64,000 nucleotides of DNA, taken from NCBI RefSeq assembly GCF_054482595.1, contig NZ_CM137008.1; one strand, written 5' to 3'. Positions 32,654 through 38,600 of the stretch are shown piece after piece; position 1 is the first letter of the stretch; each line of letters begins with the position of its first letter. The position numbers were made by a program.

Positions 32654-35600
32654 TACAAGAACGTGCAAATTCAACAAATTGTGATGCATCCTGTAGGCCT
32701 GATAAGCGTAGCGCATTAGGCAATTAGCCCCACCTTCTCCATGTGGAGAGGGTGGGATTGGATTACTTATGACCTGCCAGCAGTTCCAGCACTTCATCCA
32801 CGCTGGTGGTGTGTGCCAGACGCTCGATGACGGACTCATCATCCAGTGCATTGGTCAGGCTGGTGATAACCTGAATGTGCTCGTTGTTACGGGCAGCAAT
32901 ACCAATCACCAGACGGGCAATGTCATCTTCTTCTTCACCGAAGCGCACGCCTTCCGGGTACTGGCAGAACACCACGCCCGTTTTCAGTACGCGATCTTTC
33001 GCTTCAACCGTACCGTGTGGCACCGCGATAGACTCACCCAGATAAGTCGGGGTCAGTTTTTCACGATCCAGCATCGCCTGAACGTATTCCGGCTCAACGT
33101 AACCGCCTTTCACCAGCTGCTCGCCAGCAAAACGAATCGCTTCTTCTTTGGTGGCCGCTTTGCGACCGAGGAAGATGTTCTCCGCGCCCAGTTTGAACAG
33201 GTTAGCACTGGAATCGTCAAAGCTGTCTTTCAGACTGTCTTTCACTTTCACTTCGTTTTCAGTATGGCGCTGGGCAGCAACCAGACGTTCGGTCAGGCTG
33301 GTGTACAGGCCGCTGTCGAGGAAGTTGGTCAGCGAAATATGCTGTGCCTGCGGAACCTGGCGCATAGCGCGTTCGGTCAGGTCACGGTGAGTGATGACGA
33401 GGTCCACATCTGGCGGCAGGTTGTTGATCGCACTGTTAGTGACCGAAATCTGCGACAGACCTGCATCCTGAATTTTCTTACGCAGCACGCCTGCGCCCAT
33501 CGCACTTGAACCCATACCGGCGTCACAGGCAACGATGATTTTACGTACGTGGCTCAGGTCGTTAGTCACATCGCCCGCAGACAGCGGAGATGCACCTTTA
33601 GACTCAGCTTTCATGTCCTGCATACGACGAGTTGCTGCTTCAATATCATCTTCTTCTTTCACTTTGCTGGTTTTCAGCAAAATAGCAGAGACAACAAAGG
33701 AGACAGCCATCGCCGCACACACACCCGCGATGTTAGCGAAATAAGCACCTTTTGGTGTCATCGCCAGTACAGCAAGGATAGAACCCGGAGATGCCGGAGA
33801 AACCAGACCACCGCCCAGGATAGTCAGCGTGAACACGCCAGTCATACCGCCGAGGATAACGGCCAGGATCAGACGCGGATTCATCAACACATACGGGAAG
33901 TAAATTTCGTGGATACCACCCAGGAAGTGGATAATTGCCGCACCGCCCGCAGACTGTTTAGCGCTACCACGACCAAAGAACATGTACGCCAGCAGCACGC
34001 CCATACCCGGACCTGGGTTAGCTTCAATCAGGAAGAATATGGATTTACCCAGTTCATGGGACTGCTGAATACCCAGCGGCGAGAAGATACCGTGGTTAAT
34101 GGCGTTGTTGAGGAACAGGATTTTCGCCGGTTCAACAAAGATAGACGCCAGCGGCAGCATGTCATGGACAACCATGAAGTTAACGCCCGCAGCCAGCATT
34201 TTGGACAGGGCTTCAACAATCGGGCCAATGCCGAGAAATGCCAGAATGGCGAGGATCATCCCGATGATGCCTGCGGAGAAGTTATTCACCAGCATCTCAA
34301 AACCGGATTTGATCTTACCGTCTACCCAGCGGTCGAAGTGCTTAATGCACCAGCCGCCCAGCGGACCTGCAATCATAGAACCGAGGAACATCGGCATGTC
34401 TGCGCCGACGATAACGCCCATGGTGGTGATGGCACCGACTACGCCGCCACGTTCGCCGCCTACCAGCTTACCACCGGTATAACCGATCAGCAGCGGCAGG
34501 AGATAAGTGATCATCGGCCCGACCAGCTTCGCCAGCGTCTCGTTCGGTAACCACCCTGTTGGAATAAATAACGCGGTGATGATACCCCACGCGATAAACG
34601 CGCCGATATTTGGCATCACCATGTTGCTGAGGAAACGACCAAAGCTTTGCACTTTGATCTTAATATCGGATGACATAAAAACACCCCTTCTTATGTTTGC
34701 TGTCGCGCAGGCTGGAAGCCCGAGGTTTTTTGTTAATGTGGCGGCAGAGGTAGCCGGACCTTGTAGATACTGCGAAATCTGGCACTGAATCGGTTAACTG
34801 TCCAGTCGACGGCCTTTTGTGTGATATCAGTCACATAAATATAGGGGGTAGAGAGGTAATTGACGTGATACTCATCACAAAACGCTTGTGTAAAAAAGCA
34901 ACAAGACGGCGATTTTCGCTAAAAATGGCATTTAAATGTGAGTAGTGTCACATTTTTGTTTTGATGGTTTGTTGAATCTTTGTGATCTGAATCACAAGAT
35001 ATTTTCTTACGGCGTTCACCTGATGTGATCTACAGCATGTTATGCCTTCGTCATACAATCGTTATGTAACTAAGCAACTCATCACCTCTAAAAATTATTC
35101 TTTGGTGTTATGGCGAGAATCGCGAACCCGGATTATTGTCAAAATATCAGCCTGACTCCCTTCTGGCTGCCAGCCCAAAAACAACACTGATAAACGTGAA
35201 TCCGAGGCAGATATGTTTCTAAACTATTTCGCGTTGGGAGTGCTGATCTTCGTCTTTCTGGTGATTTTTTATGGAATCATCGCGATACATGACATCCCTT
35301 ATCTGATTGCCAAAAAGCGCAATCACCCCCATGCCGACGCTATTCATACGGCGGGCTGGGTGAGCCTGTTTACTCTGCATGTTATCTGGCCGTTTCTGTG
35401 GATCTGGGCGACGCTCTATCAACCGGAGCGTGGCTGGGGTATGCAGTCACATGTTGCGTCGCAGGAGAAAGCAACTGACCCGGAAATCGCCTCACTTTCT
35501 GACCGAATTTCCCGGCTGGAGCATCAACTCGCCGCCGAGAAAAAGACTGACTATTCCACGTTCCCGGAGATCTAATTATGGATCTATTGATTGTTTTAAC

Positions 35601-38600
35601 TTACGTGGCGCTGGCGTGGGCGGTCTTTAAAATCTTCCGCATTCCGGTAAATCAGTGGACGCTGGCGACGGCGGCGCTGGGAGGCGTGTTTCTGGTGAGT
35701 GGTTTGATTTTGTTGATGAACTACAACCACCCTTACACTTTTACCGCGCAAAAGGCAGTGATAGCGATCCCTATCACGCCACAGGTGACGGGAATTGTTA
35801 CTGAAGTCACTGACAAGAATAATCAGCTTATTCAAAAGGGCGAGGTGCTTTTTAAGCTCGACCCGGTTCGTTACCAGGCGCGAGTTGACAGACTTCAGGC
35901 TGACCTGATGACGGCGACGCATAATATAAAAACGCTGCGCGCCCAGCTCACTGAAGCGCAGGCCAACACCACCCAGGTTTCAGCGGAGCGCGACCGTCTG
36001 TTTAAAAATTATCAACGTTACCTGAAAGGCAGCCAGGCGGCGGTGAATCCGTTCTCGGAACGTGACATCGACGATGCGCGGCAAAATTTCCTCGCGCAGG
36101 ATGCGTTAGTGAAAGGCTCGGTGGCGGAGCAGGCGCAGATCCAGAGTCAGCTCGACAGTATGGTCAACGGCGAGCAATCGCAGATTGTGAGCTTAAGAGC
36201 GCAACTTACTGAAGCAAAATATAATCTTGAGCAGACTGTCATTCGCGCACCAAGCAATGGCTACGTCACTCAGGTACTGATCCGCCCAGGCACATACGCA
36301 GCTGCCTTGCCGTTGCGTCCGGTGATGGTTTTCATCCCCGAGCAAAAACGGCAAATTGTCGCCCAATTTCGGCAAAACTCGCTGTTACGTCTGAAACCTG
36401 GCGATGATGCGGAAGTGGTGTTTAACGCGCTACCTGGGCAGGTGTTCCACGGCAAACTGACCAGTATTTTACCTGTCGTGCCAGGCGGTTCTTATCAGGC
36501 GCAGGGGGTATTGCAATCATTAACGGTCGTGCCCGGCACGGACGGTGTGCTGGGAACCATTGAACTGGACCCTAACGATGATATCGATGCCTTACCCGAC
36601 GGCATTTACGCCCAGGTGGCAGTTTACTCCGACCATTTCAGCCATGTTTCGGTGATGCGAAAAGTGCTGCTAAGAATGACCAGCTGGATGCATTATCTTT
36701 ATTTGGATCATTGAGGGGGAAGGGGGAGATTATGGAACTTTGCTCCCTGTAAGGACTAATTATTTTTGCATATTATTTCATCGGCTGTGATGATTTTTCG
36801 TTAATATCCATTATGTTAAGAAGTTCGGGATGAGTGTGAACTCATTGGATTTTTTATCCGTCTTGATCTGCCGAAGGATCAGACTATACATTGTCGAGAT
36901 CGCAATGATGATATGAGTTGTTCCTCCTGCGACGGCTCTAATCAAAAAAGAGCAGGAGTGCTTTTCCATCTATTGCGATGATGGCTTTATTATCTGAAGG
37001 ATGACAGTCACATTTAAAAAATATTTAATCTATAGATCACAATGTAGGGTCATGGAATATATGTATACAACTATTTTCTTCTTCACTTTTAATTATCGTG
37101 TTCATTATAAAACCAAGTTAAAAAAACTCCTGGAGAGTGACTTATTAATATATTTTTAAATAAAATTAAGTTATTATTCATCGATGCATTTTATAGAATC
37201 ATCAATGGCCATAATAGTACTATTAACTCTCCACTTTATATTTTTATCATCACTACAAATATTAACTGAATTTATATCAATGATTTTTTTATTCTTATCT
37301 TTTGTTTTATTTACTGTTTCAATGCAATCAGCGGCAAGTTGGAGTGGATTTAGATTTTTCAGATATGGTCTTATGATCTTTCCCTTACTTAATAAATAGC
37401 ATGTATAGGATTCGGAAAGTCCAGCATCTATTTTGTACCTCATTATATTAGATAAGGATGTGAGAAATTCCTTGTTATCATTCGCAGCCATATATGCCAG
37501 TCCGAGTTCAGCCTCTGCGGCCTTACAGGCAAAATAGCTAAGTGAACACGCTTTTCGTCCCTCTTTAGTACTGGCTGATATTAGTGCCCATAATATTGCT
37601 TTGTCTGCCAAATCTAACTCTCTCTGAAATTGTCTTGCAGTAACTGCACTCGCAGAAATAGAGAAAAAAAATACAATTGTTAATAACTTTGCCATATTTT
37701 TTAGTCCGTAACTGTTAATGTGCTATCTGGCTCTGAAAATATTAACTCATTTAATTTTTGCATGTCATTAGATGAACCAGTTATACAACCCTCGGAACAG
37801 AATCGAGGTCCTAAAGACGGACCGAAAGCGTTTAAACAACTATGTGTTAAAAATCCATCACGATTATATGTTTCTGTATTTGCTGACGGTACTAAACGTA
37901 TACCATTAGGTTTTCTATTGGTTGCTCCAGGACCATTAACATTCCAGCTCCATACCCCTTGAGGTATTGGACCTCTATTTTGTAAGTGTGTACAACCAGG
38001 ATTATTTTTACATTGCATATTATTACCATTATTACCAGAGGCGACAGGAATAGTAAGCACATCATAAGAGTTATCATCATTTTGCGTATCTGAAACGCAT
38101 GAAAGCATACTTAAAGTTATGCTGTATAAACAGGTCGCTAATCCCAACGGGTCAATATCAGTTATCGGATTCAACGGATACTGATAAAAATTCCATCCCC
38201 CTTTCAGCCCAATCGGATCCTGAGTGATATATCGCCCCTGCAGCGGGTCATAATAGCGGTGGCGGTTGTAATACAGGCCGGACTCCTCATCATACTGCTG
38301 CCCCGGCAGGCGGATAAGCTGCTGCAGCTGATGCGGGTTCTCTTCATTCAGCAGGTTGCCCCACTCATCGTATTCTGCGCACCATTCTGTAGCACCTTCC
38401 GTGCTGATAAGCGCCAGCGGCAGGCCGCGATGGTCGCAGTGGTACAGGTGGATTTTTCGCGCCGGCGTGTACACCGGGTCCATCTGGTTTTGCATCTGCG
38501 CCACCGTCAGGCCGCACGATGCCAGCCAGCGGCGGCTTTCCTCACTCACCCGGTCAGCCAGGATTTCACTTTCCAGCCGGTCGAGCATCTGCACCGTGCC

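Follow-up and report, generated by a model that had tools for sequence, protein, structure and literature searches.

We found that two adjacent genes of the Escherichia coli chromosome, yibI and yibH, are probably part of an undescribed cell-envelope system. They lie in a 64,000-nucleotide window of contig NZ_CM137008.1 (RefSeq assembly GCF_054482595.1), to whose full length all positions below refer, and they encode a small membrane protein of the DUF3302 family and a HlyD-family periplasmic adaptor, or membrane fusion protein (MFP). The genes, their domain families and the existence of the pair are already catalogued. What is undescribed is the system to which they would belong: an adaptor subfamily that has its own transmembrane (TM) hairpin and C-terminal helix, pairs obligately with DUF3302 and lacks a linked pump. 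It is quite possible, though short of probable, that YibI-YibH forms the inner-membrane and periplasmic half of a tripartite-pump-like assembly that spans the envelope.

The structure of the locus is simple. The forward (+) strand carries yibI at 35213..35575 (ATG start, 120 amino acids; identified from the open reading frame (ORF) list and Pfam PF11742) and yibH at 35578..36714 (ATG start, 378 amino acids; ORF list, Pfam and NCBIfam). These are exactly the positions and sizes at which the first-pass annotation, made from the sequence alone, had placed a two-TM DUF3302 protein and, 2 nt further on, a HlyD-like adaptor. The TAA stop of yibI (35573-35575) is separated from the yibH ATG at 35578 by a 2-bp TT spacer (35576-35577). 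A GAGG 5 nt 5' of the yibI ATG (35204..35207, +) may act as its Shine-Dalgarno sequence, and a similarly Shine-Dalgarno-like GGAG for yibH (35566..35569, +) falls within the end of the yibI coding sequence, at a distance of 8 nt from the yibH start codon. The position of this GGAG inside yibI, together with the 2-nt gap, suggests translational coupling of yibH to yibI. RefSeq labels the two products 'DUF3302 domain-containing protein' and 'HlyD family secretion protein'. The region 34500-37300 gave no Rfam match to a riboswitch or leader RNA at E<=0.1, and promoter and terminator scans returned nothing notable beyond shuffled expectation.

Both genes are kept with great constancy, as the first-pass annotation had supposed. 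Of 5426 complete E. coli genomes, 5406 match the segment 34700-37200, and 5381 of these cover at least 80% of it. Against the orthologues of Escherichia whittamii and Citrobacter youngae, yibI has a ratio of nonsynonymous to synonymous substitution (dN/dS) of 0.04-0.07 and yibH one of 0.02-0.03; for yibI the ratio reaches 0.12 against a Raoultella terrigena locus (L046; L numbers are our locus identifiers). Apart from yibI against its paralogue yiaW, described below, synonymous sites were saturated in the remaining comparisons. Given these low values, yibI and yibH are functional genes under strong purifying selection, and together with the near-universal presence in E. coli this identifies them as real genes rather than chance ORFs.

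Residues 3-78 of YibI align to model positions 1-76 of the 77 in DUF3302 (PF11742; E=3.3e-41, 139.7 bits), and hydropathy as well as AlphaFold2 (AF2) modelling, with helices at 2-26 and 41-68, bear out the two-TM DUF3302 protein that had been proposed. The modelled chain consists of TM1 (about 2-26), a loop of the form HDIPYxIAKKRNHPHxDAIH, TM2 (about 41-68), a variable linker and a short C-terminal helix (90-112). We examined conservation in a paired alignment of 29 diverse YibI and YibH sequences, on which all invariants and hairpin-tip counts given here are based. Invariant in YibI are Y20, H26, D27, P29, R36, H38, P39, A43, H45, S51, F53, H56, W59, P60, W65 and A66; they map to the end of TM1, to the HDIPYxIAKKRNHPHxDAIH loop and to the middle of TM2 with its buried His56. 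By the positive-inside rule, the loop with its KKR most likely faces the cytoplasm and the tail the periplasm. DUF3302 is a modest family of 816 representatives at 50% clustering, and the 150 of these among the matches listed are all small proteins (about 70-230 amino acids). No credible fusion of DUF3302 to another domain was seen in the Pfam annotations of our other searches. Among solved structures no relative emerged, the best match being a weak one to rhodopsin (E=1.4e-3) that is probably compositional.

YibH combines lipoyl-type strands, a beta-barrel and an alpha-hairpin, as seen consistently with Pfam, NCBIfam, AF2 and Foldseek, and is thus an MFP, as its RefSeq label and the first-pass annotation had it. 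Its Pfam matches are CusB_dom_1 (4e-15), HlyD_D23 (5e-9) and Biotin_lipoyl_2 (3e-4), and its best NCBIfam scores are those for EmrA/EmrK (113.5 bits), MdtN (110.9), RND_mfp (99.9) and AaeA (75.1), of which RND_mfp is the sole model passed (cutoff 94.9). The closest solved relative by sequence is EmrA (8zar/8zal, E=1.7e-11). Foldseek against the PDB likewise places EmrA from the EmrAB-TolC cryo-EM structures (8zal/8zar) first, with E=4e-20 and a TM-score of 0.62-0.67 normalised by target, followed by Aquifex EmrA, MacA and AcrA/MexA, all within an E range of 4e-20 to 1e-10. The AF2 model from the single YibH sequence was poor (pLDDT 53) and confident in the hairpin only. When YibI and YibH were modelled as a fusion, YibI-(GGGGS)7-YibH, with the 29 paired sequences, pLDDT rose to 75 overall and to 80-96 in the adaptor core. 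The modelled YibH has TM helices at about 1-19 and 26-50, joined by a loop of the form F17-K18-x-F20-x-x-P23, a hairpin at 97-152 and 161-218 with the tip arginine R147, and a C-terminal helix at 355-374.

The features that set YibH apart lie at its two ends. N-terminal invariants are Y9, F17 and P23, with K18 and F20 near-invariant, and C-terminal invariants are Y350, R361, R366 and W370; along the coiled coil conservation is low, save for R147. Taken together, the invariants of YibI and YibH cluster in TM and cytoplasmic-loop parts, plus the C-terminal helix of YibH. On sequence grounds, YibH-type proteins are a distinct adaptor subfamily, defined by an extra N-terminal TM helix, an FKxF(K/R)IP cytoplasmic loop and an RKxLLRxxSW C-terminal helix. 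Adaptor lengths fall into classes of about 317-320, 335-344, 375-381 and 431-440 amino acids, which in the alignment differ in coiled-coil length. The hydrophobic helices 1-19 and 26-50 provide an N-terminal anchor, and K18 and R21 in the loop between them fit the positive-inside rule, by which the N-terminus would be periplasmic and the connecting loop cytoplasmic. With these predicted topologies, YibI and YibH would both put short conserved loops on the cytoplasmic face, unlike plain adaptors.

The hairpin tip could indicate what the adaptor reaches. In adaptors such as AcrA, MacA and HlyD, TolC-family channels are contacted through a tip formed by the RLS motif (R-x3-L-x6-S). The tip arginine is kept in at least 90% of the 29 family members; a strict R-x3-[LIVMF]-x6-[ST] pattern at this arginine is present in 10 of the 29, for example RAKELFKRNAGS and RQADLFKKEIVS, and R-x3-L in several others. 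The conserved arginine and the RLS pattern make the YibH-type family look built for docking to an outer-membrane factor (OMF), while for YibH itself, whose tip reads R147-Y-L-K-G-S and is derived, this is unproven.

The pairing of the two proteins extends far beyond E. coli. A genome scan ranked by similarity to E. coli YibI gave 72 loci, all from Enterobacterales; diversity was added by 80 metagenome loci, from a scan seeded with distant members, and by ten look-up loci. A YibH homologue follows the DUF3302 ORF in 87 of 97 cases from the 72 genome loci and the ten look-up loci. Intact pairs of the genome set are spaced by -4 to +5 nt, and related loci, spaced by -8 to +5 nt, often have ATGA or overlapping junctions; the cases with no adaptor are accounted for by contig ends, fragments and probably frameshifted copies, which were not checked one by one. 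In the metagenome set the adaptor lies directly downstream of DUF3302 in 70 of 80 loci, and nine of the ten misses have at most 420 nt of downstream sequence. The remaining one (L090, 249-997), where DUF3302 overlaps an unrelated 116-amino-acid ORF by 4 nt, is the single exception to the pairing and could be a true variant or an assembly chimera. The tight coupling that had been proposed from the E. coli locus thus holds generally: of the roughly 150 loci examined, which come from Gamma- and Alphaproteobacteria and from metagenomes, almost all have a spacing of -8 to +31 nt. Named hosts include Shewanella, Vibrio, Salinivibrio, Ferrimonas, Marinobacter, Halomonas and an alphaproteobacterial metagenome-assembled genome (MAG). 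The flanks all differ between Shewanella baltica, Halomonas cupida, Vibrio algivorus, Marinobacter, the alphaproteobacterial MAG and a JGI contig, and none of these six neighbourhoods has a pump or OMF gene beside the pair. To judge by these varied flanks, DUF3302 and its adaptor are a self-contained module that is mobile as a unit. Subfamily-specific adaptor N-termini also track subfamily-specific DUF3302 sequences. A protein of about 142 amino acids with no significant Pfam match recurs by the pair (L172, 9712-10140; L098, 8081-8896; L120, 251-772); in the alphaproteobacterial MAG its gene follows the adaptor gene, and in an unrelated metagenome contig it lies 5' of DUF3302.

E. coli itself carries the module twice. 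BLASTP, the DUF3302 profile search and the ORF list identified the paralogous genes yiaW (53791..54114, +; 107 amino acids, 75% identical to YibI) and yiaV (54120..55256, +; 77% identical to YibH over 378 gap-free residues), 18.5 kb downstream of yibI-yibH and in the same orientation. The dN/dS of yibI against yiaW is 0.06. Architecture and spacing are the same, with yiaV starting 5 nt after yiaW, while the C-terminal tail of YiaW is shorter and the genomic context differs, the second pair lying between aldB and yiaU (LysR)/yiaT (MipA family). Two ORFs follow yiaV, one of 324 amino acids (55253-56227, -) and one of 246 (56351-57091, +), which we take, by their position on the K-12 map, to be yiaU and yiaT. 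We considered YiaU as a regulator of yiaWV and set it aside, since the targets named from ChIP-exo and RNA-seq are yiaT and waa genes and yiaWV is not named (PMC9068703). Citrobacter and relatives also have two DUF3302-adaptor pairs, only about 8-9 kb apart (e.g. L009, L011-L013, L026 and L028), and the duplication must therefore be older than the split between Escherichia and Citrobacter. Redundancy of yibIH and yiaWV may mask or weaken the phenotypes of single deletions.

A linked pump is what this module lacks. Neither the ORF list nor the annotated E. coli neighbourhood contains an ATP-binding cassette (ABC), resistance-nodulation-division (RND) or major facilitator superfamily (MFS) pump or an OMF within about 10 kb of yibI-yibH, and no transporter of the FUSC/AaeB, EmrB or MacB type was detected in 333 kb around 76 diverse pairs. 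Three ABC matches were rejected as partners, as they comprised the ATPase domain only and none was adjacent; the one at L078 is an importer by Pfam. RND operons near the pair in L087, L109 and L156 were judged incidental, because the first two encode their own AcrA-like adaptor and only an adaptor gene is visible in the third. MipA (YiaT-like) proteins and MscS-type channels showed no recurrence as neighbours, and neither YibI nor YibH matched any PADLOC family, which speaks against membership in a defence system. The statement of the first-pass annotation that the pair has no pump partner accordingly stands for E. coli, where none is linked, and needs qualifying for a minority of lineages, where candidate partners adjoin the pair. 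The only complete arrangement of transporter, adaptor and channel found for the DUF3302-adaptor family is on the metagenome contig L125 (4246-9457), where genes for a cation/proton antiporter (CPA), DUF3302, a 319-amino-acid MFP, a NodT-family OMF (TIGR01845, 289 bits against a cutoff of 210) and a DegP/HtrA-like protease follow one another on one strand; a NodT OMF also lies next to the pair in L155. Links to CPA, NodT and DUF3313 lipoprotein genes are minority events, each seen in about 3-9% of contexts, and are leads rather than established partners. For comparison, a Syntrophobacterales MAG (L171, 1-7224) has a FUSC - DUF1656 - AaeA-like MFP - outer membrane efflux protein (OEP) cluster beside a SulP transporter and a CPA homologue, and shows the classical small-protein/MFP/pump architecture that is absent from YibIH.

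Published work touches these genes only in passing. Our full-text literature searches found no functional study of yibH, yibI, yiaV, yiaW, DUF3302, YiaU, ydcL or DUF3313. The genes yibI and yibH are listed in uncharacterized y-ome clusters (PMC11551758) and YiaV is catalogued as an 'Uncharacterized' MFP, TC 8.A.1.1.4 (PMC10971958), so that the supposed lack of a defined function is confirmed, with phenotypes at screen level only. In uropathogenic E. coli, human urine induces the yibI and yibH promoters, and loss of yibI lowers both competitive fitness in urine (index 0.33) and adhesion (PMC5404293). In a library of transporter knockouts, the strain lacking yibH ranks within the 15 most sensitive to azithromycin, beside mdtN, acrB, tolQ and tolR (PMC9405208), and in Klebsiella a yibH deletion lowers the plating of evolved phages (PMC11796411). 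Deletion of yiaW raises the efficiency of Ca2+-mediated transformation, according to a citation of that result in PMC12844161. Together these reports lean towards a role in the envelope or in permeability, while proving nothing.

From these data we propose, tentatively, how a tripartite-pump-like assembly could be built. The two genes would be expressed as a translationally coupled two-gene operon. YibH would be an EmrA-type MFP, anchored by its two N-terminal TM helices with the N-terminus out and the short loop in the cytoplasm, and its lipoyl, beta-barrel and roughly 85-A alpha-hairpin domains would reach into the periplasm. Like other adaptors it may oligomerise into a tube, whose hairpin tip (Arg147, with an ancestral RLS motif) could dock to a TolC-type channel or to some other partner in the outer membrane. 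YibI would be its obligate two-TM inner-membrane partner, packed against the TM hairpin of YibH and adding a His/Asp/Lys-rich, cytoplasm-facing loop and the buried invariant His56. Energy or substrate supply would be encoded away from the pair in E. coli, with YdcL (DUF3313), a cation/proton antiporter and TolC as candidates, and the role would probably be export or the upkeep of the envelope permeability barrier.

Several observations weigh against such an assembly. With no pump partner known, the 'adaptor' has no demonstrated object. YibH lies far below the cutoffs of all curated MFP equivalogs (EmrA, MdtN, AaeA and MacA), scoring 113.5 bits against a cutoff of 390.8 for EmrA/EmrK (TIGR00998), 57.1 against 563 for the EmrA equivalog NF011715 and 75.1 against 400 for the AaeA equivalog NF007850. 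In the class of E. coli, Vibrio, Shewanella and Halomonas the hairpin tip is derived, RY(L/Q/E)xG, and not the canonical RLS. Every phenotype reported for yibI, yibH or yiaW is a single screen result, obtained with no complementation, and the azithromycin result is further clouded by the Table 3 legend, which reads ornidazole where the text says azithromycin, Table 2 already being the ornidazole table (PMC9405208). An IS1 insertion in yiaW from macrophage-evolved clones had no phenotype in macrophages on its own (PMC5495878), and yibH has served as a neutral integration site, with no comment made (PMC5852967).

Other readings, partly compatible with the tripartite-pump-like assembly and with one another, have to be weighed. 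The pair may be a self-sufficient minimal system in which YibI is an ion-, proton- or substrate-conducting subunit and several YibI and YibH chains form a pore with no separate pump. Each heterodimer would contribute four TM helices, and the pore would lie beneath the adaptor tube. The autonomy of the pair in almost all lineages fits this, as do the invariant mid-membrane His56 of YibI together with H26, D27, H38, H45, S51, W59 and P60, the invariant Y9 in the extra TM helix of YibH and its cytoplasmic loop, features that EmrA, AaeA and YdhJ lack, and the ion/proton antiporter as a recurring neighbour. Such a system is nonetheless unlikely: it has no precedent, the conserved His and Asp residues are the only hint of an energy-coupling motif, and DUF3302 has no solved relative. 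A wider version of the same idea, to which we give a small chance, is that YibI and YibH represent a fifth, pump-less class of trans-envelope machine, with YibI as conducting core and the adaptor tube docking TolC or YdcL, that would serve cation or envelope-barrier homeostasis.

Alternatively, YibI and YibH could form a trans-envelope tether with a DUF3313 lipoprotein, in E. coli YdcL, that maintains outer-membrane integrity in the manner of PqiA-PqiB-PqiC and carries out no efflux. A DUF3313 gene directly adjoins the pair in five loci: in L066, L072, L148 and L111 it immediately precedes the pair in the same orientation, and in L071 it immediately follows, facing the pair convergently. In L172/L098 such a gene lies 3.3 kb upstream. 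All five adjacent copies bear a lipobox with Ala or Ser at +2, and the L148 copy matches Pfam with E=6e-49. The three enterobacterial cases, Enterobacter sp. kpr-6, Biostraticola tofi and Ca. Pantoea deserta, have otherwise non-syntenic flanks. YdcL is near-universal in E. coli (5411 of 5426 genomes) and has been analysed as a lipoprotein of outer-membrane vesicles (PMC10673343), and its deletion causes thermosensitivity that Mg2+ rescues, from which the authors infer a defect in outer-membrane integrity (PMC3112155). Against this stand the rarity of the adjacency, about 5-6 of some 70 independent contexts, and the fact that the genes are unlinked in E. coli, where ydcL is absent from the window, and in most genomes; the RLS-type hairpin tip also favours a TolC-family partner over a lipoprotein. 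We regard the tether as doubtful. In L066 (9193-11857), L072 (9254-11982) and L071 (10001-13033) the genes for DUF3313, DUF3302 and the adaptor form a four-gene cluster with one, just beyond the other three, for a small secreted protein, which is YhcN/BhsA (DUF1471)-like by sequence features only; it is the sole further gene that these three loci have in common.

It is distinctly improbable that the pair is an accessory of a NhaP-like CPA antiporter of about 400 amino acids and links cation export to an outer-membrane channel, with the E. coli antiporter encoded elsewhere and CvrA/NhaP2 as the nearest curated type. Among 57 informative non-enterobacterial loci, five (L087, L093, L125, L132 and L155) have an antiporter of this size (PF00999) at most two genes from the pair, and these five span three gene orders and three DUF3302 subgroups; the chance expectation is 0.1-0.4, assuming that the family makes up 0.1-0.3% of genes. 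The best NCBIfam match is a K+/H+ antiporter (NF003716), below cutoff, and close homologues of the L125 copy carry PF00999. This forward enrichment is real, and the one-strand order of L125 adds to it, but the reverse test failed: none of four homologues of the L125 antiporter (64-75% identity) has DUF3302 or an MFP nearby, and no CPA gene occurs near the pair in the 72 enterobacterial loci. Nor is a tripartite CPA system known, and since small cations use porins, an outer-membrane channel seems needless. We thus dismissed CPA as a dedicated partner and keep it as a minor rival only. Of the four antiporter homologues sampled, the one in L168 has a DUF3313 gene next to it.

That the pair is an orphaned remnant of an AaeXAB- or YdhIJK-type system (small protein - MFP - FUSC) is very improbable despite the like gene order and the 24-25% identity of YibH to AaeA and YdhJ, given that no homology of DUF3302 to DUF1656 and no FUSC gene around the diverse pairs was detected and that the extra TM helix and C-terminal helix of YibH occur in neither AaeA nor YdhJ; of its two versions, a pair serving an unlinked FUSC pump or a decaying one, decay is refuted by the low dN/dS and the near-universal presence in E. 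coli.

The genomic surroundings of the pair in the window are E. coli chromosome and include an Rhs element. The annotated strain XH990 has the order lldR-lldP ... yibL, yibT, mtlR-mtlD-mtlA (opposite strand), yibI-yibH, followed by an Imm57 immunity gene, Rhs fragments, yibA, yhhH, rhs genes, yibF, selA and selB. The upstream neighbour of yibI is thus the divergent mtlA, which encodes a phosphotransferase system (PTS) transporter. The Imm57 gene and Rhs fragments lie 3' of yibH on the other strand. The Rhs region (37174-46035) contains a full-length rhs gene (41851-46035, -), orphan Rhs C-terminal fragments at 39938-41407 and 37701-38594, immunity-like small ORFs of the Imm57 family (37174-37695) and of YhhH-like (39583-39966) and YbfB-like (41525-41851) type, and a HEAT-repeat, yibA-like ORF at 38834-39493; long repeated stretches shared between the Rhs copies are apparent in the translations. 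Between mtlA and mtlD, at about 32440-32770, both strands carry ORFs whose translations are repeated peptide strings. These suggest palindromic repeats of the repetitive extragenic palindrome/bacterial interspersed mosaic element (REP/BIME) type, and such repeats have spuriously lengthened mtlD at its upstream end in the mechanically made ORF list.

Periplasmic adaptors are understood almost wholly as accessories of RND, ABC, MFS or FUSC pumps. The DUF3302-YibH module is widespread and strongly conserved, is present in two copies in E. coli and has membrane-embedded invariants of its own, with no linked pump gene. If its partners are encoded elsewhere, it would be an unrecognised player in TolC-dependent efflux and macrolide tolerance; if it works by itself or together with a lipoprotein of the outer membrane, it would be a new kind of envelope-spanning machine. 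Our data provide a testable hypothesis for the y-ome genes yibI, yibH, yiaW and yiaV, and possibly ydcL, and single out the residues H26, D27 and H56 of YibI and Y9, K18, P23, R147, R361, R366 and W370 of YibH.

Among known systems, AaeX-AaeA-AaeB and YdhI-YdhJ-YdhK resemble YibIH in that a small two-TM gene lies tightly 5' of an MFP gene. In contrast to these, YibIH has no third, pump gene, and the coiled coil of YibH is about 52 residues longer in pairwise alignment. The small proteins show no relationship either: BLASTP found no similarity between YibI and AaeX, and hhalign gave a probability of 0.5% for DUF3302 against DUF1656 (AaeX and YdhI), with a thin DUF1656 alignment of 2 sequences. 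PqiA-PqiB-PqiC offers an analogy of layout only, and this if the DUF3313/YdcL link is real: a polytopic or small inner-membrane protein, an oligomer that spans the periplasm with a long helical needle, and an outer-membrane lipoprotein. PqiB is an MCE-domain protein and YibH an MFP, with no homology between them. The nearest counterpart of YibH is EmrA of EmrAB-TolC (8zar/8zal, 4tko), an adaptor that is without the RND-type membrane-proximal domain. Both are anchored by TM helices rather than by lipid and have lipoyl, beta-barrel and long hairpin domains. At about 18-20% identity they differ at the membrane, where EmrA, like AaeA and YdhJ, has a single N-terminal TM helix after a basic cytoplasmic tail and no YibH-type C-terminal helix, while YibH carries an additional N-terminal TM helix together with an invariant loop, and a conserved helix at its C-terminus. 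EmrA works with EmrB, whereas an EmrB-like MFS gene adjoins no YibH locus examined, and YibH is paired with DUF3302 instead.

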